64,000 nucleotides of DNA from the IMG/VR virus record IMGVR_UViG_3300047497_000079, positions 17,637-81,636 of that record, one strand, 5' to 3'. A model generated the notes under the pieces. It did no database searches. It had not been told where the DNA came from and saw nothing but the letters and a program-made list of their open reading frames with translations. A program made the position numbers and the translations under genes. Positions 2,418 through 51,845 of this stretch are shown in pieces. Within the stretch, counting starts at the first letter, position 1. The number at the start of each line of letters is the position of its first letter. The DNA comes from a virus.

Positions 2418-2933
2418 CTACAAATATTCTTTGTACTGGCGTAGCAAACTATCGTCCCCTTTGCTTGTTAGCGGAACATAGAACAGCATACGATTATCGG
2501 ACTTTTCATGAACTCTAAAAACACGTTTGCCATTCAAAGCTCGCTTCATCAATGCCGCAAAGTTGTAGAACGTGTTGAAACGCTGGGAATTCTCGCAGAT
2601 AAGCAGAATTATATCGCAGTAGCGAAACTTATTTAAATAGAAGAAGACCGCTTTTTTGACTAACGCCATAATCTCCTGAGCATCCTTTAACGATAGATCG
2701 TTAATCTTGCTGTAGTGTTCGTTCACAGTAAAATCTATCTGAAGAATCAGGCATCCATCCTCTTTGTAGGTTGCGGCATAGACCCCGACTGGTATATTGC
2801 TCTTTGTTTTCTGAATAACTCCATGGGTATTGGGCTTGTGTAGCCAGCGCTTAACAAAGTTGGGTACAAAAGAGCGTGGATGATCGTTAAAGGCCGGGTG
2901 GGCCTCGTTTAAGAACTGTTGGAAGCTTTGCAT
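2418..2933 (-). CDS. Hypothetical protein with capsid-targeting-like N-terminus
   Basis: Starts MQSFQQFLNE; TAAATA 4 nt upstream of ATG; inverted relative to flanking baseplate genes. Confidence 0.7.
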   Translation of the reverse strand: MQSFQQFLNEAHPAFNDHPRSFVPNFVKRWLHKPNTHGVIQKTKSNIPVGVYAATYKEDGCLILQIDFTVNEHYSKINDLSLKDAQEIMALVKKAVFFYLNKFRYCDIILLICENSQRFNTFYNFAALMKRALNGKRVFRVHEKSDNRMLFYVPLTSKGDDSLLRQYKEYL

Positions 2934-2938
2934 CCCAT

Positions 2939-2961
2939 ATTTATTAACGGCCTTATAAATA
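2939..2961. promoter_or_regulatory. Divergent pair of T4-type late promoters
   Basis: TATAAATA on + upstream of gp8, and ATAAATA on - upstream of the ORF starting at 2933. Confidence 0.7.
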
Positions 2962-2984
2962 CTTTTAAAGACTCACGGTAATCC

Positions 2985-4481
2985 ATGTCAGGCATAATCA
3001 CGAACCACGTCCGGCTATTCGAGGCCAATACCTTCCTCAACCGCTTCAATTCGACGGACAATTTATATCTCTATATCGCGCGGATTACGCCCTGGCCCAA
3101 CGAGTCATCACCGCCGTCTGCGGCCGATACGGTGTTCTCGACCGATTACGACCTGTGGCGGCAGATCTATGCCATGAAGAAGGTGTCCATTGGCAACATG
3201 TCCTTCGGCGTCCCCCGCTATAACTGGACGACGGGCACGGTGTACAACGAATACCGGGACAACGATTCCTCGCTGATATCCGAACCATTTTTCGTGATCA
3301 CGTCGGCCCTGAACGTGTACAAGTGCTTGTATAACAATGGCGGGGCCACATCCACCGTACAGCCCACGGGCACGTCGACGTCGTCATTCCAGACGGCGGA
3401 CGGATACATATGGAAGTTTCTCTATCAAGTCTCGGCCTCGGGCGCGACGACCTTCCTGACGCCGTCGTTCATCCCCGTTCAAACCATCGCCTCGAACGAC
3501 GGATCGGCACAATGGTCGGTACAACAGGCAGCAATCCCAGGTTCCGTCGAAGTCATCGACGTCATTTCGGGCGGCACGGGCTTTACGGGCGATGCCAACA
3601 CGGCTTCGACGGCGTCGGCTTCCACAATCACCCTCCAGACTTCGGCCGCCACGGGCAAGCTCAACGGCTCTGTCGTCTATATCTCCTCAGGCACTGGCGC
3701 GGGTCAGCTCAGGACTATCACGGCCTGGAACGGGTCCACCAAGGTTGCCACCATTTCCCCCAACTGGACGACGACGCCCGATGGCACGTCTTCATACGTC
3801 GTCGGCGCACAGATCACGGTGGCGGGCGATGGACAGGGTTTAACGGCCTATGGCCTCGTCTCCAACACGGGTGTCATAACGTCCGTACCCGTCGTCTCAA
3901 AGGGCAATTCCTACACCATCGTATCTGCCACGGCCTCGGCAAATGGCGGTTCTGGAGCCAACCTCGACGCGTACGTAAGCCCTCGGGGCGGACATGGTTC
4001 GGATGCCGTGTCAGAGCTATTCGGGACCAATATCATCTTCTATGCGCAGCTCAATGGCACCGAGAGCAACACGATTTCTGCCTCGAACCAGTACCGGGTG
4101 CTGGGCCTGATCCTTGATCCGCTCCTCGCCAATGGTTCGCCGGCGACAGGGGCCGTTTACGATCAGACCACGCATCTAACCATCACGTCTCCCGTGGGCA
4201 CATTCACGAACGACGAGGAGATCGTGGGCCAGACCTCGGGGGCAACGGGCTATCTCGTCGATGATACGTCGAACGTCCTCCGTCTCGTCAATGTGACGGG
4301 CACCTTTGCCAATGCGGAAAGCGTCGTGGGGCAATCGTCATCTGCACACGGCACTGTTTCAGCAATTTCCGCATCTCCTCTTAAACTTTTTACTGGAAAC
4401 ATCCTCACCGTCGAAAATAGGCTTTCTGTATCAAGATCACCGAACCAAGCCGAAACTTTCCAGATTGTGATGGAATTCTGA
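2985..4481 (+). CDS. gp8: Baseplate wedge subunit gp8-like
   Basis: LYLYIARITPWPNESSPP, VPRYNWTTGTVY, VYKCLYNNGG, DGYIWKFLY, SPRGGHGSDAVSEL. Confidence 0.85.
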   Translation: MSGIITNHVRLFEANTFLNRFNSTDNLYLYIARITPWPNESSPPSAADTVFSTDYDLWRQIYAMKKVSIGNMSFGVPRYNWTTGTVYNEYRDNDSSLISEPFFVITSALNVYKCLYNNGGATSTVQPTGTSTSSFQTADGYIWKFLYQVSASGATTFLTPSFIPVQTIASNDGSAQWSVQQAAIPGSVEVIDVISGGTGFTGDANTASTASASTITLQTSAATGKLNGSVVYISSGTGAGQLRTITAWNGSTKVATISPNWTTTPDGTSSYVVGAQITVAGDGQGLTAYGLVSNTGVITSVPVVSKGNSYTIVSATASANGGSGANLDAYVSPRGGHGSDAVSELFGTNIIFYAQLNGTESNTISASNQYRVLGLILDPLLANGSPATGAVYDQTTHLTITSPVGTFTNDEEIVGQTSGATGYLVDDTSNVLRLVNVTGTFANAESVVGQSSSAHGTVSAISASPLKLFTGNILTVENRLSVSRSPNQAETFQIVMEF

Positions 4482-4521
4482 TCCATCACACTAAATACTT
4501 AAAACGCTTTAATCCTTCTAC

Positions 4522-7500
4522 ATGGCAAACACTTCAAATACGAATTCTGCTGACAATACGGTCCCGTGGATTGATACCAACCTATCGGAATATCCGTATT
4601 TTGATGACACCGACGAAACCAAGGATTATGAGCGGGTTCTATTTAAGCCTACCGTTGGCCTTCAGACTCGTGAGCTAAATGCTCTTCAGACTTATATCCA
4701 GAAGCAAAATGCCCGCGTCACGTCTTCCATATTCCAGGACGGCACCCGGATCAAAGGCGGGTCGTTTAACATTGACCTCAACGCAAATTATGTACGGCTT
4801 CAAGACAATGATCAGTTCGGTCATGCCGTAAACGTAACTAATTTTGCTAACACAGTTATTACTGGTGCTACTTCAGGTGTTAAGGCCCATGTCAGCCTTG
4901 TTCAGGCAGGTACACAGGCGGCTTCACCAAATACAAATCTACTCATTGTAAAATATACCGCTGCTTCTAGTTCGAATAATTCCGTTACGACATTTACGCC
5001 CGGTGAGATTATTTCATCTGATACGGGTTTCACTGCAACTGTAATAAACCTGACCTCTGCACTAGGATCTGCTTCGACGATGAAAGTCGACGACGGCATA
5101 TTCTTTTGCAAAGGATTTCCCGTTCGCTTTTCCAAAAGTTCCATTATCCTTGATCCCGCAAGCTCGACACCTTCGTGCCGTGTAGGTATCATCGTCAACG
5201 AAAACATCGTAAATTACGAAGAAGATCCAACTCTTCTTTCTAATGCCGCAGGCTTCAACAATTATAACGCACCGGGCGCGGATCGGCTTCAACTGCTCCC
5301 CGAACTTACGATCCTCGGACTTACTGAGTCTGTACCGTCGAACTTTTCTCAGATCTGCGTGCTATCAAATGGTGTCATTCAGTCAGTAAACCAGCCCGAT
5401 ACTCTATCGAATGTGATGGACGTTTTGGCTCAGAGACAGTACGAGACCACTGGGAACTTTGTCGCCAACGGCATGAACCTCAGTGTGGTCGAATGTCTCG
5501 ATAGCGGTATCAACAACGGGTATTTGTCTGCTAATAATGGTGGCAACACCTATCAACTTGCCGTTGGTGTCCAGCCTGGGTATGCCTTTGTAAAAGGCTA
5601 TAACGTCCAGTACTATGTCACTCAGTGGGATCTTATCGACAAGGGCATTGATTATGTCAATGTTGACTCCGTTACAATTCAGACAAATTACGGAAACTAT
5701 GCGAATGTAAAGCAGCTTGCTGGTTATTTCGATACCGTCAATGGCACTCCTGTAAGCTTATACAGTGCCAACCAGTATGCTCTCTCCAACAATACCTACG
5801 TGTCTGGAAGCTATAATGGTTCGATCATAGGCACGGCTCGTGTTCGTGAAGTCGAGCTTCAGACAGGCAACTATGACGACGCTGCCGCAACATTCAACGT
5901 CTATCTGTACGATGTAAAAATGACGGCCAACGATTTTTCGGCTGTCTGTTCTATCGTTTCAAATACTGGTGTATGCGATATCATTCCCGATGCTTCGTCA
6001 AATACAGCTTATCTATATGACGCAAGTTTCGACGACGCCGTCTTCCCCATTGCAAATCAGGCAATCCGGACGATCAGAAACGCCAACGGCAATGTTGTAA
6101 ACTCTTATGAGTTTACACAGTCCTTTCCCGTGACGATTGCGTCTTCGGGGACTTTTACCGTTGCAACGGGAAGTTCAAGCGAAACGTTTCCCTACTCTCC
6201 CGGTCTGTTAAATAGTACCCAGGTCCAAGACTTTATGGTTGTCTTGCAGGGTAGCGCAAACGTTGCCCTCCAGGGAACAGTCACGACTGTCAATGGCAAT
6301 ACCACTGTTACCGGCGCGAATACAATATTTTCTACACAGCTCCGGGAATCTGACAAGATAAATGTTGGCGGCAATCTGTATCGCGTTGCTAATGTCAATT
6401 CGAACACCAGTCTAACCCTTTGGCATCCCGCCACATCCAATGCGACGTCCTCTTTTTCGAAGCAGTATATTAGCGGCGACATCGTCCCATTCAATGTAAA
6501 TGGTACGAGTGGCACTGCACGTACCATCACCGCAAGTTCATCGACGTCTGCTGCTTTCAACCTTGAGGAAACACTATCCAATAACGTTTCGGCCGTTGTC
6601 TTCTGTAAGCTTATTAAGGCTAACGCAACGGAGAAGAAGAAACACTTAAATAACGCTTATGTAATAATTGATACTACGACCCATTCTGCTAATACCGTTG
6701 GCCCCTATTCATTGGGTTTCGCGGACATTTACAGCGTTATTAGCTGCCGTACGTCAGCCAACGCTTTTGTTAATGTAACGGACGGAACCGACGTCTCGTC
6801 ATATTTTCTGTTCAATACAGGACAGAATGATGATTTGTATGGTCTCGGTTCTATGTCCATCGCTAACACTAGCGTCGTGCTGGATCGTTATTTGTTGGTC
6901 AATGTTGCCTTTTTCTCACATGACTTTTCACAGGGGTCGTGCTTCTTTACAGTCGACTCGTACCCCGTTGACGACACGACGTACACGAGCAACTCCACGA
7001 TTAGGACGGAGTTAATACCATACTTCCAGTCACCTTCGGATGGTACCTTATACAGTCTTCGTCAGTGCATAGATTTTCGCCCTGCTTTGGTAAATACAGC
7101 AGCTAATTCTGCTACCATATCAGGTGCTACCACCAACCCGTCTGCCAATTCCACTCTAAATGTGCCATCGGGTGGCTTACATTTTCCGGTTATCGACTCA
7201 AACTTTACCTCTTCCTTCTCTTATTACCAGGGCCGTGTCGATCTCGTCACTCTTACGCCAACCGGAGGGCTCAATGTCATTCGTGGTGCGCCGGCAGATA
7301 GCCCTGTAACGCCACAGACGCCTTCTTCGACCATGGCTCTTGGCACTGTTCAAGTGCCTCCCTATCCGTCCTTGGCCAACACCGTCACGACGTCCTGGTT
7401 GGGTTCCAAGGGTTATACGATGCAGATGATCGGGGCGCTTGAGACCCGCATCGCCGCGCTTGAATATTATTCCAGTCTCAACCTATTGGAGCAGAGCACG

Positions 7501-10500
7501 AGTGCGCTGCAAATTCTCGACTCTAACGGGCTGAACCGATTCAAAAATGGGTTCATTGCAGATAATTTCTCTGGCTCGAATATCGTAAATGTGTATGACG
7601 TTGAATACCTCTGCTCTATTGACACCACAAATCAATTGTGCCGCCCCCGCTTCTACCTTAATCAGGTAAAGCTTGACTACGATCAAGTACATTCAAATAA
7701 CTGTGTCACATCCGCTAACGCAGTATCACTGATACTAGCCAGTAATAACACCACGTTTGTAGCAGGCCAGGCTTTTCAGACCAATTCTGCAAGCGGCACT
7801 GTCGTTGCAACACATGGCAACCGAGTTTATCTGGAAAATATCATCGGGACATTTGCCGCTAATTCTTACACGCTTGAAACCAACAGCTCACCGACGACCT
7901 ATCAGATCACGAGCGTTGTTCCATCTGTCAATGGATCGTTGCTAACTCTGCCATGGACCAACTATCTCGCGATACAGCAACCCTATGCGACAGAAACACG
8001 GAATGCTGCTGGTCTGGAATGGGATTGGGTAGGCAACGTAACTCTATACCCACCTTCCGATTACTGGGTTGATACGAACCAAAGCGCAGACGTGGTTCTA
8101 AACGTCGGCGACCAGAATGATAACTGGGAGGCCAACAATGGCTGGGTTACGACCTGGAATTCTTGGCAGACCGTCTGGACTGGCACGAGCACGTCGAATA
8201 CAACTACAACTCAGATAACTGTTAATAGCGCCAGTGATTTGACAGATATTACTGCTGTCGCGCAGTATGTCATTAACGGTGGCACTTTGACCTTAGGTCG
8301 TCTTGGGGGCAATTATGGGCTCTCCACAATTGAAAGCCGTTGGTCGTCGTTTTTTTCAGACAATGAACCTCTTCAAGGTGTAATTGCTTGGTTACAAGAG
8401 GAGTTATCTCGTTACGGATCGAGCGGTGTAGAAACCGTTACTATTCAGAACGGCGTATCTACTACCAACACGGTACAGACCAGGACGGGCACTTCTTCCT
8501 TAACGACCTATTCAGAGCAGACATCGACGGTCGGTGATTATGTGATTGACACATCACTCAATCCCTACATGCGCTCGCAGGCTATTGTGTTTGTGGCCAC
8601 GGGAATGAAGCCAAATGCACAGCTCTATCCATTTTTCGACAACATCGCGGTCTCTCAATATTGTGCTCCCCTGGCGAATGTGAGTTTCCAGAATTCTTTG
8701 ATTTCAGTCGCCAATACGAATGCGTATATACCACTGCAATCGTCCTTGGACCAGGCTTTAGCGACGGGGATCGAGGTTCCGACTCTTGGCGATCCTTTGA
8801 TAAGTGATGCTAATGGTAATGTGATCGGTGTTTTCTATCTTCCTGATAATCCAAATCGGCAGTTTAATGTTGGTTCGGTCGTTTTCCGGCTTTCGGATTC
8901 TTTGGTCAATTCTAATACCGTGGGCGATGTCACCACCTCGGCCGAGGCTACCTATTCTGCATATGGTATTACGGATACCACGTCCAATCTGATCGTTTCG
9001 ACGCAGGTAGCCTCGACCCAGACACAGAGCGTTACCCAGACTCAGACTTTATCTTCGACGACTACGACCTCACAAGTCGTAGCGGCGGCACTTTATGAGC
9101 CCATTGTACAGTCTTTCTCGGTTCCGTTGCCTTCCAGTGAAACGGCCGAGGGAGTGTTTGTCACACGGCTTGATTTGTTCTTCCAGACCGCCGATCCGGT
9201 GCAACCCGTTACGATCAGTCTCGTTGCCCTTGACCCCAGCACCGCACAGGTTACCAGCACTACCATCCCTCTATCTACCAAGATCCTGTATCCTGGAGAT
9301 ATTAACGTATCTGCGGATGGAACGGTCCCCACGCCGTTCTATTTCGACTCGCCGATCTATCTGACGGCCGGTCAAATGTATGGATTTAAGATTTTCCCAG
9401 GTGGAAGTAACCCGAATTATAACGTGTGGGTCGCCACTCTCGGCCAGACGGATGTCTCCACGGGTATACAGGTCATACAAAATCCTGCGTCGGGCAATCT
9501 TTTCGTTTCGTCAAACGATCAAACGTATACGGCCGTAACAAATCAGCAGGTTAAGTTTAATCTGTACGTGGCACAGTTCAACACATCAGTGCAAGGTTCT
9601 GCCGTTCTTTATAATGATCCCCAAGAGTATTTGCAGCTATCTTCCAATACTGGCGGTGCCTACTTTATGACGGGCGAGCCGATATTTGGTCCGACCACTA
9701 TCACTCTCTCAAATGTCGCAAATGGAACTCCCGTCGTCGGAGATATCGTCCGTGGGTCTACATCTAACACGTCGGGCTATATTACTGCCGTGTCTAATAA
9801 TGTTCTAACTGTTACGCCTTGGGCCAATCAGTTAGGGGCTTCCTACTTCTCGAACGATGCCATGACCATTCTTTATGCGAATGGATCGGCTACGGGCATA
9901 ACCTCTAACACTATTTCTGTTACCTTCCCTTCGGGCCTACAGTCCAGTTCGTCGCTCGGAACGCTGGTATTGAATACTATGTCAAATACGCAGTTTCAGG
10001 TGAACAACACTATTGTTGGACAGTTTGCTGGCCTCTCCAGTGTTTTAAATTCCTTTGGCAATATCCAATATGACGTTTATCAGCCGACGATATCATCGCT
10101 TGTGTTTCCGAAAACATCTATTGCTTGGGCGGCTAAGACAACTTCTAACACGGGAACATTGGATAGCTCCTATAATGCATGTGTGGTGAACAACAATAAT
10201 AATTGTCTCGGACAGCGCGTAATCTATACCAATACTTACGAAAAGAACATGCTGGGTGATCATTCATTCAAGTTGAATGGCATTTTATCCACCTCGGACG
10301 CTTATCTGTCTCCTGTGATCGATCTCACCAGGAGCGGTGTCATCCTGGTTGGTAACATCATAAACAATGTGACTACAAATGAGACGACACCTCATGCGGG
10401 CCAAGCAGCCGCGAAATATGTTACCCGTTTAGCAACTCTTGATGCCAATATGGATGCCGAGGATATCGTCGTCTATGTCACGGCATACCGCCCGCCCGGA

Positions 10501-10815
10501 ACCGACTTGCCTGTGTATGTAAAGCTATCCAATTTCCAAGATACGCTTGCGACGAATGACCATAATTGGGTTCAACTCGTGCCGGATGGCACAGCTTATT
10601 CGGACGCGACCGATCCGACGGATTACATAGAATATACCTATAACTTGCCTTCTTCGGTTATGACGGGTCCTGATGGTGGTTACCAGTACGTCGGTCCTAA
10701 CAACGTGACGTTCTCTTCATTCCGAAACTACATAATCAAGATCGTGATGATTTCCGATGATTCTTCCAATGTTCCGCTCCTAAGTAATATGAGAGCGGTC
10801 TGTCTCCAGATGTAG
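4522..10815 (+). CDS. Large virion structural protein (VrlC/DUF4815-like)
   Basis: PYFDD..K.YERVLFKP..LQTRELNALQ, APGADR, NRFKNGFIADNF, PIVQSF, D.YLSPVID motifs typical of T4-like VrlC proteins. Confidence 0.8.
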   Translation: MANTSNTNSADNTVPWIDTNLSEYPYFDDTDETKDYERVLFKPTVGLQTRELNALQTYIQKQNARVTSSIFQDGTRIKGGSFNIDLNANYVRLQDNDQFGHAVNVTNFANTVITGATSGVKAHVSLVQAGTQAASPNTNLLIVKYTAASSSNNSVTTFTPGEIISSDTGFTATVINLTSALGSASTMKVDDGIFFCKGFPVRFSKSSIILDPASSTPSCRVGIIVNENIVNYEEDPTLLSNAAGFNNYNAPGADRLQLLPELTILGLTESVPSNFSQICVLSNGVIQSVNQPDTLSNVMDVLAQRQYETTGNFVANGMNLSVVECLDSGINNGYLSANNGGNTYQLAVGVQPGYAFVKGYNVQYYVTQWDLIDKGIDYVNVDSVTIQTNYGNYANVKQLAGYFDTVNGTPVSLYSANQYALSNNTYVSGSYNGSIIGTARVREVELQTGNYDDAAATFNVYLYDVKMTANDFSAVCSIVSNTGVCDIIPDASSNTAYLYDASFDDAVFPIANQAIRTIRNANGNVVNSYEFTQSFPVTIASSGTFTVATGSSSETFPYSPGLLNSTQVQDFMVVLQGSANVALQGTVTTVNGNTTVTGANTIFSTQLRESDKINVGGNLYRVANVNSNTSLTLWHPATSNATSSFSKQYISGDIVPFNVNGTSGTARTITASSSTSAAFNLEETLSNNVSAVVFCKLIKANATEKKKHLNNAYVIIDTTTHSANTVGPYSLGFADIYSVISCRTSANAFVNVTDGTDVSSYFLFNTGQNDDLYGLGSMSIANTSVVLDRYLLVNVAFFSHDFSQGSCFFTVDSYPVDDTTYTSNSTIRTELIPYFQSPSDGTLYSLRQCIDFRPALVNTAANSATISGATTNPSANSTLNVPSGGLHFPVIDSNFTSSFSYYQGRVDLVTLTPTGGLNVIRGAPADSPVTPQTPSSTMALGTVQVPPYPSLANTVTTSWLGSKGYTMQMIGALETRIAALEYYSSLNLLEQSTSALQILDSNGLNRFKNGFIADNFSGSNIVNVYDVEYLCSIDTTNQLCRPRFYLNQVKLDYDQVHSNNCVTSANAVSLILASNNTTFVAGQAFQTNSASGTVVATHGNRVYLENIIGTFAANSYTLETNSSPTTYQITSVVPSVNGSLLTLPWTNYLAIQQPYATETRNAAGLEWDWVGNVTLYPPSDYWVDTNQSADVVLNVGDQNDNWEANNGWVTTWNSWQTVWTGTSTSNTTTTQITVNSASDLTDITAVAQYVINGGTLTLGRLGGNYGLSTIESRWSSFFSDNEPLQGVIAWLQEELSRYGSSGVETVTIQNGVSTTNTVQTRTGTSSLTTYSEQTSTVGDYVIDTSLNPYMRSQAIVFVATGMKPNAQLYPFFDNIAVSQYCAPLANVSFQNSLISVANTNAYIPLQSSLDQALATGIEVPTLGDPLISDANGNVIGVFYLPDNPNRQFNVGSVVFRLSDSLVNSNTVGDVTTSAEATYSAYGITDTTSNLIVSTQVASTQTQSVTQTQTLSSTTTTSQVVAAALYEPIVQSFSVPLPSSETAEGVFVTRLDLFFQTADPVQPVTISLVALDPSTAQVTSTTIPLSTKILYPGDINVSADGTVPTPFYFDSPIYLTAGQMYGFKIFPGGSNPNYNVWVATLGQTDVSTGIQVIQNPASGNLFVSSNDQTYTAVTNQQVKFNLYVAQFNTSVQGSAVLYNDPQEYLQLSSNTGGAYFMTGEPIFGPTTITLSNVANGTPVVGDIVRGSTSNTSGYITAVSNNVLTVTPWANQLGASYFSNDAMTILYANGSATGITSNTISVTFPSGLQSSSSLGTLVLNTMSNTQFQVNNTIVGQFAGLSSVLNSFGNIQYDVYQPTISSLVFPKTSIAWAAKTTSNTGTLDSSYNACVVNNNNNCLGQRVIYTNTYEKNMLGDHSFKLNGILSTSDAYLSPVIDLTRSGVILVGNIINNVTTNETTPHAGQAAAKYVTRLATLDANMDAEDIVVYVTAYRPPGTDLPVYVKLSNFQDTLATNDHNWVQLVPDGTAYSDATDPTDYIEYTYNLPSSVMTGPDGGYQYVGPNNVTFSSFRNYIIKIVMISDDSSNVPLLSNMRAVCLQM

Positions 10816-13524: not shown

Positions 13525-13536
13525 ATAAATAATTGC

Positions 13537-14160
13537 ATGAATAATATCATTCCACTTCTCACTTTTGCATGGGCATGTGATCAAATCCTCGTTTACGAGG
13601 GTTCCGAATATACCGACGATCCCGATGACGCCGGTGGTCCCACTAAATGGGGTGTGACGCTCGAAGATTACCGCGAGAACATCAATCCACAGGGCACCGC
13701 GAATGACATCAAGAATTTGTCACGCGATACCGCTATTCAAGATTATAAGCTGCATTACTGGGACCCCATAAAGGGAGACGACCTGCCATTCTATATGGCT
13801 TTCCTCATCTTCGATTTCGGGGTCAATTCCGGTATCGGTCATGCCGTGAAATATGCTCAGGCCGTTATGAACATCACTCAGGACGGTTCCGTAGGCCCTG
13901 TGTTTGAAGCGGCCGCCGCCGCGTTCAATCCTACGACTTTCATCGAACAGTTTTCCGCTGCCAAGGAAACGTTTTATCGAGGTCTCGGTAACTTCTGGAA
14001 ATATGGATCGGGATGGCTGTCTAGGGCCGAGACCTCCAAGGCCCTTGCTACGGCAATTGTCACCGAATTCGGTGCGGCCAAAGTCACCCCTGATGATACG
14101 ACTACGGAGGACACTCCGGACGTCGCTCAAGGCGACCTCCTGGTTAAGAGTACTCAATAA
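13537..14160 (+). CDS. Glycoside hydrolase family 108 lysozyme with peptidoglycan-binding domain
   Basis: EG.EY.DDPDDAGGPTKWGVT, FDFGVNSG, GWLSR. Confidence 0.85.
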   Translation: MNNIIPLLTFAWACDQILVYEGSEYTDDPDDAGGPTKWGVTLEDYRENINPQGTANDIKNLSRDTAIQDYKLHYWDPIKGDDLPFYMAFLIFDFGVNSGIGHAVKYAQAVMNITQDGSVGPVFEAAAAAFNPTTFIEQFSAAKETFYRGLGNFWKYGSGWLSRAETSKALATAIVTEFGAAKVTPDDTTTEDTPDVAQGDLLVKSTQ

Positions 14161-14535: not shown

Positions 14536-15276
14536 ATGACGAAACCTACCAACCGGGAAGAGCTAAAGTGTTATGCGCTAAGAGCACTTGGTCAACCTGT
14601 TATTAACGTAAATGTGTCTGATGATCAGTTGGAGGACCGTCTCGACGATGCCTTGAGCATCTTCCGGGAATGGCATCATCTTGGGACGGTGCGTGGCTAT
14701 CTGAAATACCAGATGCAGGCCCAGGATATCACTAACGAGTATCTCACTCTCCCTGAAAACGTTCAGGAGGTCACGCGGCTGCTAAACTACGATACATCCT
14801 ATGGAGCGGCTCTGTTTTCACCAATCCCGTACGCCAAATATACATATATGTATAATTACAATTTCGGCGGCGGCGCGGGGCAGATCTATGGATATTCGGT
14901 CGCTCTATCGAACCTGGAGCAGCTCGACGAGCAGCTCGGCCAGAAGATGGATTTTCAGTACAATCGCTATAATAACCAGCTCTTCATCGAGACCGATTGG
15001 GTCGACTTTCAGGCTGGGAATTACCTCGTCATGGAGGCTTATTTCACCCAGGACGTGGAAGGCATGTATGGCGACATCTGGCTTCAGCGCTATTTCACGG
15101 CGCTCGTTAAGAAACAGTGGGGCAACAACCTCGGAAAGTATTCGAACATACAGCTCTTGAACGGAATCACGTTCAACGGTGAGCAGATCATGGCTCAGGC
15201 CGAAGCCGACATCGAAAAACTGACAGAGGACCTGGAGAAGAAGTTCACGCTTCCGGCTATTGGTTTGATTTACTAA
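14536..15276 (+). CDS. gp13: Neck protein gp13
   Basis: REELKCYALRALGQPVINVNVSDDQLEDRLDDAL; WLQRYFTALVKKQWGNNLGKY. Confidence 0.92.
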   Translation: MTKPTNREELKCYALRALGQPVINVNVSDDQLEDRLDDALSIFREWHHLGTVRGYLKYQMQAQDITNEYLTLPENVQEVTRLLNYDTSYGAALFSPIPYAKYTYMYNYNFGGGAGQIYGYSVALSNLEQLDEQLGQKMDFQYNRYNNQLFIETDWVDFQAGNYLVMEAYFTQDVEGMYGDIWLQRYFTALVKKQWGNNLGKYSNIQLLNGITFNGEQIMAQAEADIEKLTEDLEKKFTLPAIGLIY

Positions 15277-15668
15277 TGCTTGGATTTGCGCAGTTTGTAA
15301 GGGAAGAGATCGGTGACCCTTTAAACTCCGATCACATGACACATCACTTGCCTCATTCGCCTTATGGTGATCATTCGAACCCCAGAGGCTTGCTCAAGCT
15401 TTTTGCTGCCACACGGGCCAAAGCTACCGCGCGTAGGTCTGAACCTGAGAACGTGCCTTTGCACCGTATACGGGCGACCAATAAATACATTGGCAAAAAG
15501 CGTGGCAAGTACGACGCCTTCCCCGATCACGAAGAGCCGGTCCTCGCGAAGGTTCTAGGCACTTATCATATCCTCGACGGTCATCATCGTATTCATAGAG
15601 CCGTCGAGAAACGTGCTAAGTCCGTTCGGGCTCATGTCTACCATGTGAAGAAACACGAGGTAGAGTGA
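15276..15668 (+). CDS. ParB/Srx-like domain protein with capsid-targeting-like N-terminus
   Basis: Starts MLGFAQFVRE; EPV....GTYHILDGHHRI.RA....V.AHVY. Confidence 0.65.
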   Translation: MLGFAQFVREEIGDPLNSDHMTHHLPHSPYGDHSNPRGLLKLFAATRAKATARRSEPENVPLHRIRATNKYIGKKRGKYDAFPDHEEPVLAKVLGTYHILDGHHRIHRAVEKRAKSVRAHVYHVKKHEVE

Positions 15669-16090
15669 TGAAGTCTTTTCATCGATTCGTTGTTGAAGTT
15701 AATGAGTTTGAGCGCTTGCATCCGCGCGACGATAATGGACAATTTACGGATAAAATCATACAGGGCATGAGGGAGCTTGACCGCCATTTTGATAGAGCAG
15801 GTGATTACCTAGAGAGGAAATATGGTAATAGTTTCAGGAAAGCGATGGATAAGGAGATAAATCGCCCTACTTCGGATGCTATGAAAGATCTGGCTCTATC
15901 AATGGTTCCAGGATATGGTCTCTATAAACAAGCAAAGAAGTTCAGTCAAATAGCAAATGCTAGAGGTTATCGCTGGTATTATCCTAAATACGATCCTATG
16001 TTGGATAAACGGCTTACTCCAAAAGAGAGAAAAAAACTTTTGAAAGGCAAACAGTCTGGGTTGTCAAAAAAGCCGACATTAAGAAAATAA
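15668..16090 (+). CDS. Basic hypothetical protein with capsid-targeting-like N-terminus
   Basis: MKSFHRFVVE start; HPRDDNGQFT motif; Lys/Arg-rich tail. Confidence 0.6.
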   Translation: MKSFHRFVVEVNEFERLHPRDDNGQFTDKIIQGMRELDRHFDRAGDYLERKYGNSFRKAMDKEINRPTSDAMKDLALSMVPGYGLYKQAKKFSQIANARGYRWYYPKYDPMLDKRLTPKERKKLLKGKQSGLSKKPTLRK

Positions 16091-17269: not shown

Positions 17270-17287
17270 TGTTCATATAAATAGTAG

Positions 17288-19550: not shown

Positions 19551-19817
19551 TTATGTCGCGCCGGTCGCTGCCCAGGTATAAGTGACTTCCGCTCCAATAC
19601 CAAATCCTTGCTCTGTGGCGATTTCAACGACGATATCCTTCAAGATGTAGGCCATATCGTCGAGCGCATCATACAAATTATAGATCTCAGTCTGAAACTC
19701 GTTCTCCCACCGGCTCGTCAGCTCCTCCAACTTGCTGGAAATGTTATCCTGTGTGGTCCTGACGCGCTTCTCCAATTCGAGCAGTGTCTCTGTGTTATGC
19801 TGTATTCTGAACTCCAT
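19551..19817 (-). CDS. Hypothetical coiled-coil protein
   Basis: Overlaps the integrase 3' end; has RBS. Confidence 0.55.
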   Translation of the reverse strand: MEFRIQHNTETLLELEKRVRTTQDNISSKLEELTSRWENEFQTEIYNLYDALDDMAYILKDIVVEIATEQGFGIGAEVTYTWAATGAT

Positions 19818-22639: not shown

Positions 22640-22789
22640 AAATTCGTATACTCCTCTTGCCAAGGAGTACTGTTATGAATATAGATTGATCGGCAGGTAC
22701 CAGCCCGTGGCCACCTGCTGGGATCCGGCTGGTTTTCCGCATGACCAGACCGGATCCTTCTTGTACTCTTGCCGTGCATAAATAGTTGC

Positions 22790-23047
22790 ATGGCCAAAAC
22801 CTTCAAAACATTCATTCTTGAGAATAAAGCTCGCCTCGACGAGATCTCGCCCGCCTCATACATCCATTGGCATAACGCTACGTTAGATGCCGATGAACGC
22901 GGTGATGAGAAACGGGCCGCTTACGCCCACAAACGCATGACAGCCGCCTACAATCGTCCTCACCCCAACTCCTTTGCCGGTAAAGCCAAGAAAGTTGTCG
23001 ACAAGGGCCGTGCCGTTGTTCGCCTCGCCCGTAAAAAAAAAGTCTAA
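22790..23047 (+). CDS. Basic protein with capsid-targeting-like N-terminus; probably joined to the downstream ORF through an A9 slip
   Basis: MAKTFKTFILE; TAAATA-N5-ATG; ends in an A9 run. Confidence 0.7.
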   Translation: MAKTFKTFILENKARLDEISPASYIHWHNATLDADERGDEKRAAYAHKRMTAAYNRPHPNSFAGKAKKVVDKGRAVVRLARKKKV

Positions 23048-24003: not shown

Positions 24004-24007
24004 CAAC

Positions 24008-37713: not shown

Positions 37714-37749
37714 GCTCGTATTTATGCGTACGCATTACATAAATATGGG

Positions 37750-38724
37750 ATGCTATCCTTCTCGTCCTATATCCTCTCCGAACGCCTCGACTTCGACTTT
37801 CTCCAGGATGCTCGCACGACGGGTAACGCCGTGTTCGATGCGCTTCTAATTTACATTAAGAGCCATGGAGGATTACCGGAAACGCGCGATACGAGAAAGA
37901 TTCGAAGTTATTTTAAGAACGATCCCAATACTCACTGTGTACGTGTAAGAGACTTGCCCGTAACAGACGACATCAAATCACGATATGGTTCATCGCTAAT
38001 CTCTTTTGTGCCTTATGTCGTGTTGAATCCAAAATATAATGGAATGGGTCTTTATTTTGAAGGCGGTTATTCACATCCTACGGGTCCTGCTTTTATAAGA
38101 GCTATTACGACTCGTTTGTTTACGATCCTTAATAGTATTTTTATTGGGTATGTGACGCCTATCAATGACACATCACGCTTTGCTTATGAGATGTCTAATA
38201 TCAGGCGAACGACCTTCCTTCATGAGTGGACGCATTATATGCAGTATGTTATGGCGAAGAAGAATGTCGAATACGCCGATGCCAAAGATGATTTGGACGC
38301 CTATCACAACCGATCCGCTGAGGTCGAGGCATTTACGCAAGAGATACTGCACGATCTGGATCTCACGTTTAATCCAACATTTGGACCAAAGGGCGTAAAG
38401 ACGTTCAAACAGTGTAATTGGTCGTCTCGATCCAAGTTCAATTCACCCAATGAACTATTAAGAGCGATGCTTGCTGATGCTCATGCTCGGGGCATATATG
38501 ACAAATTCAATGCCGAAAATAAGATAAACGTGCTTAGAGTCGTGTATGACAATTATAAGAAAATTATTATGAATCAGACATTGAAGGCCATTGCTCCCGA
38601 TAAAAGCAGAGCAAGAGAGATAGCAATGCGGAAAATGGAGATTGATCATGAGAGGCGCAAACGTGATGCATTCCTTAATGCAGTCTTTGCTCGTAAGCGG
38701 GAGGCATTGAAGGCTCGTGCTTGA
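37750..38724 (+). CDS. Zincin (HExxH) metallopeptidase with capsid-targeting-like N-terminus
   Basis: MLSFSSYILSE; FLHEWTHYMQ..YHNRSAEVEAF; TAAATA-N4-ATG. Confidence 0.7.
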   Translation: MLSFSSYILSERLDFDFLQDARTTGNAVFDALLIYIKSHGGLPETRDTRKIRSYFKNDPNTHCVRVRDLPVTDDIKSRYGSSLISFVPYVVLNPKYNGMGLYFEGGYSHPTGPAFIRAITTRLFTILNSIFIGYVTPINDTSRFAYEMSNIRRTTFLHEWTHYMQYVMAKKNVEYADAKDDLDAYHNRSAEVEAFTQEILHDLDLTFNPTFGPKGVKTFKQCNWSSRSKFNSPNELLRAMLADAHARGIYDKFNAENKINVLRVVYDNYKKIIMNQTLKAIAPDKSRAREIAMRKMEIDHERRKRDAFLNAVFARKREALKARA

Positions 38725-38895
38725 ATCGTGCATGAATCGTCGTGGAATCGTGCAAAACCCATGCAAATGCCATGCCTAATCGTGCGAGAACCATTCGGCG
38801 GCGTGCGAAGGCGTGCGGGACTGTCCAAGGTCATTCTAATGCGTGTAGGGGCGGTTCATTGCATTTATATGCATGTCCTTGCGGTTCATTAACTG
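38722..38895. repeat. Cluster of short direct repeats
   Basis: AATCGT x4 (mostly AATCGTGC), GGCGTGCG x2, GCGGTTCATT x2. Confidence 0.6.
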
Positions 38896-40468: not shown

Positions 40469-42004
40469 ATTGTTCGAAACGGGACAGGCTGGCGACGGCC
40501 CCTTAGCAGAATTCCGATGCACGGCTATTCCTCCCGCAGGCACGGTCTTATGGACGGATAAGGGACCGTACAAGGTAGTATCCATCGAGGCCGTGTTGTC
40601 CAAGGACGGGACCTTAAACGCCTTTGAGATGATGGTAGAAAAGCAATGAAGGGGGCCGATCTTGAAAATATCATCATTTACGTCTCCATAGTCTTATGCA
40701 CGGCGGCGGTGGCGTACTGGCTACATTCACCACAGGGACTGTGGTCAATGCTCATGCTCCTCTTCGTCAAGTATGATGCATGAAGACGTTAGGAGACATA
40801 GCCTACGAAGCCTTTTACGCGAAGATGAACGCGATCTTTGCCCAGGACAAGATGCCGTCCAAGGCAAAGGACTCCGTGGGGTCGAAGTGCTGGGAAGCCG
40901 CGGCCGAGGCCGTAAGGAAAGAAGTGGCCGCGAAGATCCTGGCGGCTGTCGTGGCTCCTGGCTATGTAAGCTGTGATGAACAATTTTCGCAAGGGTATGA
41001 TAGCGCCATCGAAAAGACTCGGGAAGACATCGCCGCTCTCTTTAAGGAAAGTCCATGAATGAGATATTCGCCATCATCAGCCTCCCGCGACCTAATCGAC
41101 GGCGCACGGCATGAAGTGGCGGTGGCTTCTTAACGAGCAGACCGAGCTTGGGTGGATGGTATGGCCGTTCCTTTTGTTCGCAATTTCTGGCGCGATCACG
41201 GCAATTCTTTCTGAATATGGCGTAATATGAAGCTGATGTGGCAGTCTAAGAGATTAGTCGATCCATACGACGTAACGGTCATCATTAAGGAAATCGATCA
41301 CCACACCCGAATCATGATCGACATGATTAAATACGAACAACAATGAACTTCCCCTGTGCATTCACATACATCGAACGGGATTGGGACCGTGCCGGAATAT
41401 TTCACGTCCTGAAGTTTGCTCTTATCGAAGATCCCGAACAATACGAGAAGATCATAAGGAACGTCGAGGACGGTGTGTGTTTCGTTTGCTGGGTATCCCC
41501 TGGTCCTCCACAGCCCCTTTCCGTGCAAGATCCCGAACCTCCCGTAGATCCCCTGTAACAACCGAGGACGACATGTACCTGCTTCAGATGTGGCTGGAAG
41601 GCCAGAAGACGCACTGGAAAGATCATTCCTTCGTATTCCCCAACGGACGTGAATATATGATCGAAGCGGCGGCAAAAGCCGTCGAGAACGGAATAGCGGC
41701 CGAGGCCGTCCTGTGGTGGCTACGAGACATGACATCTCCCTTTATGTTCCCCGATGGACGCGAACAGATGCTGGCTTTGGTTATGTCGGTGCGAGAAGGA
41801 GCCAAAAGGCATGAACCTACGGGATGAAGTGTTCCGCGTCCTCGAAATCGCCGTGTACGAAAACGGCGAGAAGACTTTTCTGCTTTTACCCCCCTCTTTC
41901 GTGGCCGTGGAGATCAATTCGTACAACTCAACCCTGAACAAATTTGACCCCGCCGCCCTGGAACCATACATTGCCGAGTGGCAGGAAAACGAAGGATACG
42001 GACA

Positions 42005-45468: not shown

Positions 45469-45470
45469 TC

Positions 45471-46747: not shown

Positions 46748-47734
46748 ATGCTTTCTTTCGCTTCCTTCCTGTATGAAAAAGAAATTGATGCCGTTCATTC
46801 AACGAAGGTTGATTTTAAACGCTTTGCTAAAAAGTATGTTTCGAATAAAAACCGATGGGGTCCTGGCTTTTATTTCACACCCCTCGATACGGTAAAGCGC
46901 GAATACGCCAACACAGGCGAAACATACTTCTACGCCGCCGGCCGGTGGGGGCACAACAAAATCGTCGTCCTGTCATACAAGAAGCCATTTAAGGTCAAGT
47001 CATCTGACTGGGATAACTATCGAGGCCCCTGGGATCTCCTATGGCACGGCGGTTACAAATGGAAAAAGCCGCCGCTCGATCAAACCAACGAAATTATAGG
47101 CACCATGTTTGCCAAAGGCGAGATTGATCTTGCTGATCGGACGAAGATCGCAAAGGTACAAAACTCCGTTCGTAATGCCTTCATGAATGCCATGAAACAA
47201 GGAGGCTTTGACGCCGTAGAGGTATACATCGGGGCAATCCTGATGATCGTCGTGGTTTACTCGTCCTCTAATATCAAAGACAAATTTCTCAAAGACAAGA
47301 AACTAAAACCTTATGACCACTGGACCCAAGTGTGGTGGTCATTTGAAGGCGATCATATTCTGGATGCACTTTTTGACGAGGCTCAAATGCTTGATAAGGT
47401 CATTCCGAAACTGAGTAAGGACGAAAGACAGGCCGAGCTGGCAATGAAGTGTGCCCTTCAGTGGATTGATCACCTTGCAGGAAAACGAAAGATCACTGCA
47501 TTTCAGAATGGGTCCGGCGATGCCCTTGATAAGCTCATTCAAAGAGCATTTGTTATCGGTTTAGACCTCAAGCGTGCTTTTAAGCAGCGAGATCTAGTGG
47601 AGTTTAAGCGACTAATTCCAACTTACAAGCGTGCGCTAAGCGCGATCAGAACAGAACGAAAACGGCTTGCTGGTATGACGTTCCGTTACAAACAAAGAGA
47701 CGACGAAAGTTTCCTCGACCCTTCCGGGGACTAA
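46748..47734 (+). CDS. Putative ADP-ribosyltransferase-fold protein (ART-PolyVal-like) with capsid-targeting-like N-terminus
   Basis: MLSFASFLYE; VHST..DFKRF....WGPGFYFT..GFDAV; TAAATA-N5-ATG. Confidence 0.6.
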   Translation: MLSFASFLYEKEIDAVHSTKVDFKRFAKKYVSNKNRWGPGFYFTPLDTVKREYANTGETYFYAAGRWGHNKIVVLSYKKPFKVKSSDWDNYRGPWDLLWHGGYKWKKPPLDQTNEIIGTMFAKGEIDLADRTKIAKVQNSVRNAFMNAMKQGGFDAVEVYIGAILMIVVVYSSSNIKDKFLKDKKLKPYDHWTQVWWSFEGDHILDALFDEAQMLDKVIPKLSKDERQAELAMKCALQWIDHLAGKRKITAFQNGSGDALDKLIQRAFVIGLDLKRAFKQRDLVEFKRLIPTYKRALSAIRTERKRLAGMTFRYKQRDDESFLDPSGD

Positions 47735-48594: not shown

Positions 48595-48595
48595 T

Positions 48596-48627: not shown

Positions 48628-48642
48628 TTTCCGAGAACGACC

Positions 48643-49539: not shown

Positions 49540-49938
49540 ATGCTTTCGTTTGTCTCCTTCGTCAAAAGACGGCTGTTCGAAGCCCTGGAAACGCCCGTTC
49601 TTCGAAATCCTCCTATGACGAAAATAAAGCAGATCGCCCGCGAAGACCCTTCGAATGTGGCCCGATTCGTCATTGACGAGTTCGGCGACATCTACGTGGC
49701 CAAGGCTCACGACATCATTCATTCTCAGATGATGGTAGCACAGGGCGTGTCGGACGACGACGCCCTCCTTGGCTTTGTCACATACGAACACGGCCAATTC
49801 TACTACTACATTTCACAGGGCGAACCTCGAAGGCACAAAGAAGACCTAGCTCGTCTAGCCCGCTTCGACATCCATCCCGGCGATTCTCACGACTGGCGTA
49901 CGATGATGCAGCTCGGGGCCATCGGAGCGCGCTGGTAG
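49540..49938 (+). CDS. Capsid-targeting-like N-terminus plus one NP/RFVID domain
   Basis: MLSFVSFV..LFE; RNP..ARFVIDEFGDIYVA; TAAATA-N4-ATG. Confidence 0.7.
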   Translation: MLSFVSFVKRRLFEALETPVLRNPPMTKIKQIAREDPSNVARFVIDEFGDIYVAKAHDIIHSQMMVAQGVSDDDALLGFVTYEHGQFYYYISQGEPRRHKEDLARLARFDIHPGDSHDWRTMMQLGAIGARW

Positions 49939-49977
49939 TGCTCTTTTCTAACTAACTTTTCAATTAAGGATATTTCA

Positions 49978-50343
49978 ATGTCTTTCTTCAAGGCACTCTC
50001 TACCATTTTCATTTTTTGCTGCCTATGCCTCCCGGCCGCGGCTGAATGTGGAATTGCCTCCACATATTCGTCAGGACGCCTGACAGCTAACGGTGAGCGT
50101 TACGATCACATGGGCATCTCCGCCGCTCACAAGACGCTCCCTTTTGGTACCCATGTCATCGTCCGCAATCAGAGGACCGGGCGGAGTATCACCGTCCGCA
50201 TCAATGACCGGGGTCCTTTCGTCGCCGGCCGTATCATAGACCTATCTACGGGGGCCAAGAATGCCCTTGGAATGGGTGGTCTGGCCCCTGTGTGCATCGA
50301 GGTCGTTTCCTACGGTCCTAGACGCGCCCGGCGCTCTAAATAG
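49978..50343 (+). CDS. RlpA-like (DPBB) lytic transglycosylase with signal peptide
   Basis: GIAS.Y..TANGE..AAHKTLPFGT..VRINDRGPF..GRIIDLS. Confidence 0.9.
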   Translation: MSFFKALSTIFIFCCLCLPAAAECGIASTYSSGRLTANGERYDHMGISAAHKTLPFGTHVIVRNQRTGRSITVRINDRGPFVAGRIIDLSTGAKNALGMGGLAPVCIEVVSYGPRRARRSK

Positions 50344-50347
50344 AGGT

Positions 50348-51073
50348 ATGATCCTCTCTTTCCGGCAATTCATGAAGGAAGCCCTGGTCGATGACGCCAT
50401 CGTCAGGAATCCTTCGATTAGTCAGCTAAAGTCCATGATCCAACGCGCACCCCATTCTCGGGTGCGTTTTGTCATCACCGACGCCGAAGACTTTTTTGCC
50501 GTGCCGTCCACGTACAAAACCCATGACGACATCACCACTGAAATGGGCATTGATACGAATACCGTCGATTCGCTCGGCGAGGTGGTCTTCGAGAACGGTC
50601 ACTATATGATCAAGTTGTACGCCAACTACTTCTCTAATTTCGCTCATTCTTACACCGAGCCCACTCGGGAATGGATGTCGCGGCTGCGGAACACAGGCGG
50701 CTTTCTTGGTGGGAGGGTCTTTGCCGATTCCTGGGACATGCTGGGAGAAGCCATCGGCAGCAAAATCCATATCAACCCAACCATCAGCAAAATCAAAGAC
50801 CTAACCAGAACCGACCCAGCTCAGCAGGCCAGGTTTGTGATCGATTCGGACGGAGATCTCTTCGTCGGACAAGCCTACTATACCTATCACCACGACATTG
50901 AGCGCGCCGAAGGGATACATGATCCAGATGCCGAAGGTGTCTTTGAGTGGCTCAAGGAAACTGGCTTCACGTTTGATTTCACGCTCCTTCCCCGAATGAC
51001 GGACAATGTGCGTACCTGGATTAAACGTTTGCGGGCGGCTGGGTTCATCGAAGCCACTGAATCTCGTTACTAA
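50348..51073 (+). CDS. Capsid-targeting-like N-terminus plus two NP/RFVID domains
   Basis: MILSFRQFMKE; two internal repeats; TAAATA-N5-ATG. Confidence 0.7.
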   Translation: MILSFRQFMKEALVDDAIVRNPSISQLKSMIQRAPHSRVRFVITDAEDFFAVPSTYKTHDDITTEMGIDTNTVDSLGEVVFENGHYMIKLYANYFSNFAHSYTEPTREWMSRLRNTGGFLGGRVFADSWDMLGEAIGSKIHINPTISKIKDLTRTDPAQQARFVIDSDGDLFVGQAYYTYHHDIERAEGIHDPDAEGVFEWLKETGFTFDFTLLPRMTDNVRTWIKRLRAAGFIEATESRY

Positions 51074-51131
51074 CGAATTTTTCTAAATACCTAAATAAAT
51101 CCAAGAAACATATTTACAGGACAACTATTCA

Positions 51132-51845
51132 ATGTCTCAAAGAAAACGGCTTTCTGAACTCCTTTATGAAAACGACCAGTACCAGCTCGACGAAGCCGGG
51201 TTTGGAAGTGCATTAGCTGCATTTGGTCGCGACGTGCGCCATGGAACGGGTTCTGAAAAAAGCAAAGCAGCTTATAAAGCCCATGCTGCCGCCTATAAAG
51301 CAAACCCACGCGCTCCAGAACCTTCATTTCACGATTTAATGGGTAGGAGCAAAAAGGCCGCTGGCTCGACAGCATCGCACGTTGCTTCAAAAATAAGTTC
51401 GATTGTTTCGGGCAAGCACACTTATAACAAGGGCGATTACAAGCGCCCAACGGGTCAAGATCGGGACCTTCATAAGCATTTGGCTATGGCTCAGGATCAT
51501 CGCGGTGAAGCGAAGCATCACTTTGCAAGGGCTCAAGAGCATCACGAAAAAGCTCGTGACCATGGAGAGCAAGCTGCTCATCATATTCGTGCTGAAGCAC
51601 AAAAGAATTACGGAAGTTCATTGACCTCTCCGAAGCCACAGTTTCAACCGGGGCAGGGGCAACAAGGACAACAAGCTCCTCAAGGTGGTGGGGGTTCTTC
51701 ACATCTTAGAGATGCACTCCAGCATGCAGACATGGCGGGTCATCATGCAAAGAAAAGAGATGAACACTTAGGTTTGGCAAAACATCATACGGAAAAATCA
51801 AAAGCACATCTTGCGGCGATCCATTCGATCAAGCGCGGGCGGTAA
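51132..51845 (+). CDS. His/Lys/Gln-rich protein, putative internal head protein
   Basis: RLSELLYE..LDEAG N-terminus; His-periodic helices; late promoter upstream. Confidence 0.6.
   Translation: MSQRKRLSELLYENDQYQLDEAGFGSALAAFGRDVRHGTGSEKSKAAYKAHAAAYKANPRAPEPSFHDLMGRSKKAAGSTASHVASKISSIVSGKHTYNKGDYKRPTGQDRDLHKHLAMAQDHRGEAKHHFARAQEHHEKARDHGEQAAHHIRAEAQKNYGSSLTSPKPQFQPGQGQQGQQAPQGGGGSSHLRDALQHADMAGHHAKKRDEHLGLAKHHTEKSKAHLAAIHSIKRGR

Follow-up and report, generated by a model that had tools for sequence, protein, structure and literature searches.

Putative T4-type capsid-targeting leaders on dispersed genes of a distant, uncultured myovirus

Ten genes scattered over a 64,000-nucleotide stretch of viral DNA begin with the same short peptide word, and this word matches the capsid-targeting sequence (CTS) of the internal proteins (IPs) of bacteriophage T4. 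The stretch, called the window below, comprises bases 17637-81636 of the 81,636-base IMG/VR virus record IMGVR_UViG_3300047497_000079 (CheckV completeness about 49%) and, judged by its genes, is part of a distant, uncultured T4-type myovirus. A preliminary description had listed twelve open reading frames (ORFs) with this N-terminus and read them as a portable cassette of late promoter and 10-residue tag, attached to cargoes that are packaged and injected with the genome. All twelve N-termini lie where they had been placed. By every sequence-level test, the shared N-terminus is supported as a T4-type CTS. We consider it probable that the tagged ORFs encode capsid-targeted, protease-trimmed internal proteins, the T4 principle enlarged; by analogy with T4, these proteins may be injected and act as effectors.

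The shared N-terminus and the T4 capsid-targeting sequence

The tagged ORFs and the frames belonging to them are given below with their leaders, the predicted cleavage point following the last residue shown (aa, amino acids; nt, nucleotides; pI, isoelectric point).

2418-2933, minus strand: tagged ORF, 171 aa, MQSFQQFLNE, mature pI 9.5, between baseplate-wedge genes; TAAATA at 2938-2943 (minus strand), 4 nt from the ATG
15276-15668, plus strand: tagged ORF, 130 aa, MLGFAQFVRE, start overlapping the stop of a gp13-like gene; no promoter of its own
15668-16090, plus strand: tagged ORF, 140 aa, MKSFHRFVVE, mature pI 10.0; same late operon as 15276
21944-22639, plus strand: tagged ORF, 231 aa, MMSLHTFNYFITE, tag offset by 3 residues; TAAATA 5 nt from the ATG
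22790-23047, plus strand: tagged ORF, 85 aa, MAKTFKTFILE, basic, pI 10.3; TAAATA 5 nt from the ATG
23035-24003, plus strand: open frame without a tagged start, first ATG at 23149; first part a paralogue of 22790 and 24008
24008-24316, plus strand: tagged ORF, 102 aa, MLSFYSFLVE, pI 11.3, 27% K+R; TAAATA 5 nt from the ATG
36703-37713, minus strand: tagged ORF, 336 aa, MLSFAQHLAE, pI 9.5; TAAATA 5 nt from the ATG
37714-37749: 36-nt intergenic spacer with two back-to-back, near-palindromic CATAAATA boxes, one for each of the divergent tagged genes 36703 and 37750
37750-38724, plus strand: tagged ORF, 324 aa, MLSFSSYILSE, pI 9.6; TAAATA 4 nt from the ATG
46748-47734, plus strand: tagged ORF, 328 aa, MLSFASFLYE, pI 9.6; TAAATA 5 nt from the ATG
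49540-49938, plus strand: probable tagged ORF, 132 aa, MLSFVSFVKRRLFE, acidic, pI 5.8; TAAATA 4 nt from the ATG
50348-51073, plus strand: tagged ORF, 241 aa, MILSFRQFMKE, acidic, pI 5.2; TAAATA 5 nt from the ATG
51132-51845, plus strand: weak candidate, 237 aa, MSQRKRLSE/LLYE (MSQRKRLSELLYE), His/Lys-rich, pI 9.8; TAAATA 34 and 42 nt upstream

Ten of the twelve N-termini fit the consensus M-x-[S/T/G]-F-x-x-[F/Y/H]-[L/I/V/M]-x(1-2)-E, and 49540 (MLSFVSFV-KRR-LFE) fits it only with a 4-residue insert. On sequence grounds we count ten firm members, one probable (49540) and one weak (51132). The true starts are ATG 15668 (not GTG 15665), ATG 21944, ATG 22790 and ATG 50348.

Searching the entire record in six frames with a loose regular expression gave 12 matches. 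Ten of them open ORFs of 85-336 aa and sit 0-3 residues past the Met (2933 and 37713 on the minus strand; 15276, 15668, 21944, 22790, 24008, 37750, 46748 and 50348 on the plus strand); of the remaining two, one (23506) is internal to ORF 23149-24003 and one runs across a stop codon. By the same search, the 17.6 kb preceding the window and the minus-strand block at about 24.3-33.6 kb are free of tagged ORF starts, and record-wide no such start lies outside a late-promoter context. A position matrix built from nine tags, and circular for these nine, scored them at 21.6-26.2, followed by the 49540 start at 12.1 and a background of at most 11.8. Both the regular expression and the matrix missed the start at 51132. 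A non-circular pattern taken from the IPII/IPIII leader only, [FY]..F[ILV].E, matched 12 times against a mean of 2.0 (maximum 8) in 100 shuffles, and with Met at position 1 it matched five times against 0.06 (maximum 1). The tag is real and far beyond chance.

In T4 (NC_000866), IPII and IPIII start with MKTYQEFIAE, IPI with MKTFKEF... and Alt with MELITE...; the MAKTFKTFILE, MKSFHRFVVE, MQSFQQFLNE and MLSF..FL.E of the window are the same word as the IP leaders. According to an excerpt of PMC9026906, IPIII needs no more than its first 10 residues for loading, with residues 4 and 7 serving targeting and residues 8 and 10 processing; gp21 cleaves after L/I-X-E, and the T4 IPs are basic. The conserved positions in the window are exactly those of the IPIII mutagenesis, namely 4 (F), 7 (F/Y/H), 8 (L/I/V/M) and 10 (E), and the position -3 from the cleavage point holds L or I in 9 of 12 leaders, V in two and M in one. 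Genes for the two proteins that act on the T4 leader are also present, at the end of the window:

62062-62727, plus strand: Peptidase_S77 prohead protease of the T4 gp21 family (PF03420, 117.6 bits, cut-off 27)
62773-63999, plus strand: gp22-type scaffolding (prohead core) protein (PF25623 T4_CASP, 114.2 bits), the gene being cut by the record end

Among cultured phages, the protease is closest to a cyanophage gp21 (52% identity). Residues ~111-123 of the scaffold protein (63100-63130) hold a single tag-like stretch, YRYPRFVRE^E, comparable to the MLGFAQFVRE^E of ORF 15276 (the caret marks the putative cleavage point here and below).

The identification of the leader as a T4-type CTS is thus supported by positions 4/7/8/10, the [L/I/V/M]-x-E end, the gp21-family protease, the gp22-type scaffold and the late-promoter motifs described below. 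That T-even phages carry diverse internal proteins sharing the CTS alone has already been published (PMC3012670, in excerpt), with 'More than 30 known variants' of T-even internal proteins (PMC2839356, in excerpt), so the principle is known. What we describe is an extension of this established T-even principle and not a new mechanism.

Late-promoter boxes and the spread of box and tag

TAAATA followed by ATG after 4-5 nt occurs 12 times in the window (0.68 expected; maximum 3 in 100 shuffles), and all 12 sites open real ORFs. Nine precede tagged ORFs, whereas three belong to the untagged genes for the GH108 lysozyme (13526-13539), gp15 (17278-17290) and a TerS-like protein (53448-53461). The statement that most tagged genes have their own TAAATA promoter proved correct: counting 51132, with boxes at 34/42 nt, a late-promoter-like box stands upstream of 10 of the 12, and the two without, 15276 and 15668, lie in the neck-gene operon after the gp13-like gene. 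The same box also stands 18-51 nt upstream of the genes for the baseplate, the giant protein, the fibre and the scaffold, which is how a promoter behaves rather than a ribosome site. In T4, the late promoter TATAAATA occupies positions -13 to -6 (PMC1524935, in excerpt), and a NATAAATA late motif is reported for cyanophages (PMC2984593, in excerpt). With T4 geometry, a 5-nt spacer would place +1 on the A of the ATG, and the late mRNAs of nine tagged genes would be leaderless. This would explain clipped tags in gene calls. The public call of 50348 (P0004, 233 aa) begins at the Met within the tag (..F-M-KE), 8 residues late, and the tag is lost, so automatic calls can hide CTS tags on leaderless genes. 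In the literature searched (subscription papers and supplementary files lay outside it), we found no published description of this promoter arrangement, of leaderless T4-type late mRNAs or of CTS tags in uncultured or cyanophage-like T4 relatives.

In IMG/VR, a pattern scan found TAAATA-N4-5-ATG followed by tag codons at 62 loci. Promoter spacing and five residues of the tag were set by the pattern, so that independent support comes only from features it left unspecified: TA completing TATAAATA in 42 loci, a 5-nt spacing in 58 (4 nt was equally allowed), ORFs of at least 60 aa in 54, and mostly K and Q at tag positions 5 and 6. In total, the loci contain 79 tagged ORFs, which group into 37 sequence clusters; an abutting box is missing from 18 of these ORFs. 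A Pfam scan of 10 of the 37 cluster representatives gave one FMN_red, one sub-threshold TetR_C and eight without a family, and the commonest IMG/VR cargo had no tblastn match in cultured phages.

With a strict tag pattern, we counted three starts in T4 (ipII, ipIII and gp61.1), four in the cultured cyanophage S-CREM1, one in S-CAM3 (a 12-aa ORF, spurious), none in Syn1, four in a 117-kb IMG/VR record and five in the present record. Two of the four S-CREM1 tags open 'hypothetical' genes between TerS and TerL (OP535465.1, 137282-139161). One of these genes reads MKTYNDFITE^VAAWQRKEGK..., and the mature start AWQRKEGK recurs in the ORF at 4108-4410 of IMG/VR locus L032 (MLSFKQFLVE^KSPAWQRKEGK...). 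This suggests that these two tagged ORFs represent a conserved small internal protein.

The pattern scan also led to G001, a distant relative only, whose protease is 49% identical and whose class in IMG/VR is 'provirus'. G001 contains 13 abutting boxes against 1.7 expected, only one of them with the tag, as well as four tandem tagged paralogues. The abutting late promoter thus appears to be a general expression device of this phage group. The proposed portable cassette of promoter and tag is less well supported than had been stated. The two elements co-occur strongly in the window, but each is also found alone: the promoter without the tag at the three untagged genes and at 12 of the 13 sites in G001, the tag without the promoter at two genes of the window and at the 18 IMG/VR ORFs mentioned above. 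We therefore regard them as separate devices, frequently used together, and not as one obligatory cassette. We saw no DNA-level sign of a recently moved cassette. The tags differ at the DNA level, and at least two tagged groups go back to gene duplication followed by divergence, which leaves the capture of a mobile cassette unproven.

The nine predicted leaderless starts make a start-proximal constraint conceivable, and the first ten codons could then be an RNA-level or other nucleotide signal for leaderless translation instead of a targeting peptide. We regard this as extremely improbable. Synonymous codon positions vary freely from tag to tag although the residues stay the same, which means that the peptide is under selection. 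Moreover, lysozyme 13537, gp15 17288 and TerS-like 53459 share the abutting promoter without the motif, as do the untagged sites of G001, and conversely 15276, 15668, the box-less IMG/VR ORFs and the T4 ip and S-CREM1 genes are tagged behind ordinary upstream regions.

For the reading of the leader as a CTS, we propose the following course by analogy with T4 IPI-III and Alt. The 10-12 tagged genes would be transcribed late, nine of them from a NATAAATA/CTAAATA box that stops 4-5 nt short of the ATG, and with T4-like geometry their mRNAs would start at or beside the A of the AUG. During prohead assembly, the leader of about 10 residues, with its hydrophobic face F4, F7 and L/I/V8, would dock each protein on the gp22-type scaffold core. 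The gp21-family protease would then cleave after the E of [L/I/V/M]-x-E and leave the mature protein free inside the head. The mostly basic mature proteins would remain with the DNA, be ejected together with it into the next host and serve there in host take-over or counter-defence as soon as infection begins.

Cargo proteins and the weighing of readings

With the first 14 residues removed, the 12 proteins gave no pairwise BLASTP match at E<0.01 except for 49540 and 50348 (4e-13), which have a domain of ~60 aa in common (one copy in 49540, two in 50348). By alignment, 22790, the stretch 23035-23505 and 24008 are paralogues with 34-39% identity. The description of the cargoes as otherwise unrelated thus holds for most of them but not for these two paralogue groups.

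ORF 22790 contains a second L-x-E at residue 18 and ends in an A9 tract (23033-23041). The frame that continues from this tract, before ATG 23149, reads ...SYALDE^RDDSSSEYW... and is homologous to the start of 24008 (...SFLVE^RDDASTDYW) and to 22790. Frame 23035-24003 possibly reflects a shift or slippage at the A9 tract, giving a polyprotein with an internal L-x-E, or else a decayed or fused member. The tag-like KSFLKHVKAE at 23506-23535 lies ~120 residues into ORF 23149-24003, as if two tagged genes had been fused.

The paralogue groups, together with the four tandem tagged paralogues in G001, could mean that the shared N-terminus simply reflects common descent within one fast-evolving family and is a helix without a targeting role. 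This explanation is highly unlikely. The other cargoes are dissimilar and range from 85 to 336 aa, the same tag stands on 37 sequence clusters in IMG/VR, and it equals the experimentally defined T4 CTS. In addition, 50 homologous tagged cargo pairs of less than 80% identity agree at 78% of the tag positions but at 33% of the next 60 residues; this difference is inflated, since the selection pattern itself demanded about half of the tag positions.

The cargo names given in the preliminary description are weak. Two cargoes had been called ART-like (ART, ADP-ribosyltransferase). One of them, ORF 46748, matches Pfam ART-PolyVal (PF18760) at E=2.9e-5 and 25.3 bits, below the gathering threshold of 31.2, and its residues 17-177, the N-terminal half, align to profile positions 11-131 of 140; it had no tblastn match in cultured phages, and its single-sequence AlphaFold2 model was poor (pLDDT, the predicted local distance difference test, 38.3). 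The second, ORF 36703, has Atlas leads only (ART-PolyVal clusters 0.85 by features, TM 0.54 by row), that is, language-model and predicted-structure leads; it has no Pfam, PHROG, NCBIfam or PDB sequence match and no BLASTP similarity to 46748. For the supposed zincin, ORF 37750, the HExxH motif is present (HEWTH at residues 158-162, nt 38221-38235), but Pfam, PHROG, NCBIfam and PDB sequence searches gave no match. Its Atlas leads are LPD23 0.86, SprT-like 0.82 and M36 TM 0.35, and its single-sequence AlphaFold2 model was likewise poor (pLDDT 43.8). The sole further HMMER match of 37750, a 2148-aa Cna_B repeat protein, was rejected as repeat-inflated chance. PDB sequence searches with 46748, 37750 and 36703 returned nothing credible.

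ORF 15276, labelled ParB-like, gives a weak signal: it matches Pfam ParBc_2 only at E=0.062 and 13.9 bits, against a cut-off of 23.6. The ...LDGHHRIHRA... within it resembles the ParB motif and was not counted as a test. ORF 21944 matches phrog_419 (unknown function) at E=2.2e-4, and ORFs 2418-2933 and 15668 have no Pfam, PHROG or NCBIfam family. None of the window cargoes had a match in G001 or in any fetched IMG/VR locus. The recurrent domains of polyvalent proteins are ART, zincin-like peptidase and ParB-like DNase (PMC5512222, in excerpt), and on these weak assignments the parallel with our cargo hints is suggestive. Pfam, PHROG and NCBIfam gave at most one candidate domain per tagged ORF, where a polyvalent protein has two or more.

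The mature parts are basic in 10 of 12 cases (pI 9.5-11.3), while the recognised structural proteins of the window have a pI of 4.1-4.8, taken from a crude longest-ORF list that has spurious ORFs and wrongly flagged 14536-15276 as tagged. Such proteins might be loaded and trimmed, yet serve inside the capsid, either as expendable core or scaffold parts or as basic counter-ions for condensing or ejecting the DNA. This would fit the small and Lys/Arg-rich 22790 and 24008, the contacts of T4 internal-protein lysines with DNA phosphates (PMC3012670, in excerpt) and the fact that Pfam, PHROG and NCBIfam confirmed an enzymatic family for no cargo. However, four cargoes of 230-336 aa bear enzyme-like hints (the sub-threshold ART-PolyVal match, HExxH, ART-like Atlas leads), the T4 precedents IPI, IPIII and Alt act in the host, and rapid turnover and the ORFan nature of the cargoes suit an arms race better than packing. 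We therefore judge a purely intracapsid role unlikely; the two roles are compatible and not mutually exclusive.

Several points weigh against the view that the tagged ORFs encode capsid-targeted internal proteins. Two tags have V and one has M where the T4 rule wants L/I, 51132 is weak as a tag, and two members, 49540 and 50348, are acidic. Homologue searches for 37750, 46748 and 50348 returned only the query proteins, which are ORFans. A T4 gp55 query had no match in this half-genome record, a result we count as uninformative and not as negative. The RNA contigs are short, come from one metatranscriptome (X3/X4, apparently filed twice), have a low depth of 2-4 and may include DNA carry-over. 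They cover 38138-38731, 40745-40928, 46777-46941 and 51868-52000 and touch genes 37750 and 46748; such contigs cannot show starts and were counted as evidence neither for transcription nor for leaderless ends. Finally, the gp61.1 gene of T4 lies beside the primase gene, in an early-gene region. Its product, a hypothetical protein of 54 aa (NC_000866, 18966-19130, minus strand), starts with MKTFKEFIKE, and a CTS-like start is thus no proof of packaging.

Genomic setting, implications and comparison with known systems

Around the tagged genes, the window contains the following features.

1066-4481: baseplate wedge genes
4522-10815: 2097-aa protein
11019: tail-fibre gene
13537: GH108 lysozyme
14536-15276: gp13-like gene
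16092: gp14 neck protein
17288: gp15
19795-21090, minus strand: tyrosine-integrase-like gene (phrog_1, E=8.8e-54)
53459: TerS-like, weak
53923-56820: TerL, 965 aa, intein-interrupted
58399-61479: portal protein, 1026 aa, intein-interrupted

The inteins in TerL and portal both carry a LAGLIDADG homing-endonuclease domain (Pfam Intein_splicing, LAGLIDADG_3). The tyrosine-integrase-like gene, uncommon in T4-like phage, adjoins the tagged cluster 21944-24316. The interval from gp15 to TerS (18224-53458) is filled with ~35 kb of accessory genes; most of the tagged genes lie here, together with the integrase, RtcB and an RNA ligase with phosphoesterase. In G001 and in S-CREM1, gp15 and TerS are adjacent or nearly so. 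Similarly, ORF 15276 sits between the gp13-like and gp14 genes, which adjoin each other in G001. The DNA is present nearly whole (95% of sampled words) in two moss-metagenome runs. Megablast with 12 kb gave no DNA-level match to the window among cultured phages, and a search for related IMG/VR loci with the ART-like ORF 46748 and with TerL found none.

Proteins injected with phage DNA act before phage gene expression and are prime candidates for counter-defence and host take-over, with T4 IPI against GmrSD, IPIII on ECOR17 and Alt as precedents; their ORFan nature explains why so few have been recognised. Should the CTS function in distant T4-like phages as in T4, sequence alone would suffice to list the injected cargo, with about 12 candidates here and 37 clusters in the fetched IMG/VR loci. 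Tentatively, and as a possibility short of the probable, we suggest that a large, mostly uncultured branch of the T4 superfamily combines an ATG-abutting late promoter, from which leaderless mRNAs would arise, with the 10-residue CTS and can thereby turn almost any ORFan into head cargo, yielding a kit of at least 12 single-domain effectors, including ART-like and metallopeptidase-like ones. Such a kit would be the functional equivalent of polyvalent proteins, split into separately tagged genes, and the injected proteome could be read directly from sequence, except where gene calls start at an inner Met, as for 50348, and would hide the tag.

The closest comparison is with the T4 IPs. In both, otherwise unrelated and non-conserved proteins, most of them basic, start with a leader of some 10 residues that has aromatic side chains at 4 and 7, an aliphatic one at 8 and Glu at 10. 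Both genomes also code for a gp21-family protease and a gp22-type scaffold, and the tagged genes occupy variable regions between conserved modules. The window phage is, however, very distant from T4, as its protease shows, and 64 kb of its half-complete genome already carry 10 or more tagged genes. Several of its cargoes reach 230-336 aa with enzyme-like hints, and no mature part resembles a known IP. Furthermore, box and ATG are only 4-5 nt apart in nine of its genes; the ip genes of T4 carry ordinary Shine-Dalgarno leaders instead (NC_000866).

T4 Alt is a head-carried ART whose N-terminal propeptide is removed by gp21 (PMC9026906 and PMC5512222, in excerpt), and 46748 would be comparable as a sub-threshold ART-PolyVal behind a CTS. 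Unlike 46748, Alt has no IP-type CTS and belongs to another ART family, and 46748 has no similarity to any cultured phage protein detectable by tblastn.

The polyvalent and MuF-fused effectors of phages and conjugative elements and P1 DarB/DdrB are injected with the DNA, as predicted or known, and carry ART, zincin-like and ParB-like DNase domains (Iyer et al. 2017, PMC5512222, in excerpt); the Atlas leads of 36703 and 37750 point to the ART-PolyVal and LPD23 clusters. Polyvalent proteins combine 2-15 domains in one polypeptide according to the same excerpt, whereas the window has one candidate domain per CTS-tagged gene, below curated thresholds. For the ejection proteins of the phiKZ-like giant phages phiKZ, 201phi2-1 and SPN3US, the parallel is that a protease related to gp21 cuts many proteins of the head interior after Glu (PMC5694885 and PMC9026906, in excerpt), as we propose here. 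In contrast to the leaders of the window, the propeptides described in these excerpts are mostly longer than 100 residues, end in an S/A-x-E motif and do not share a 10-residue leader.

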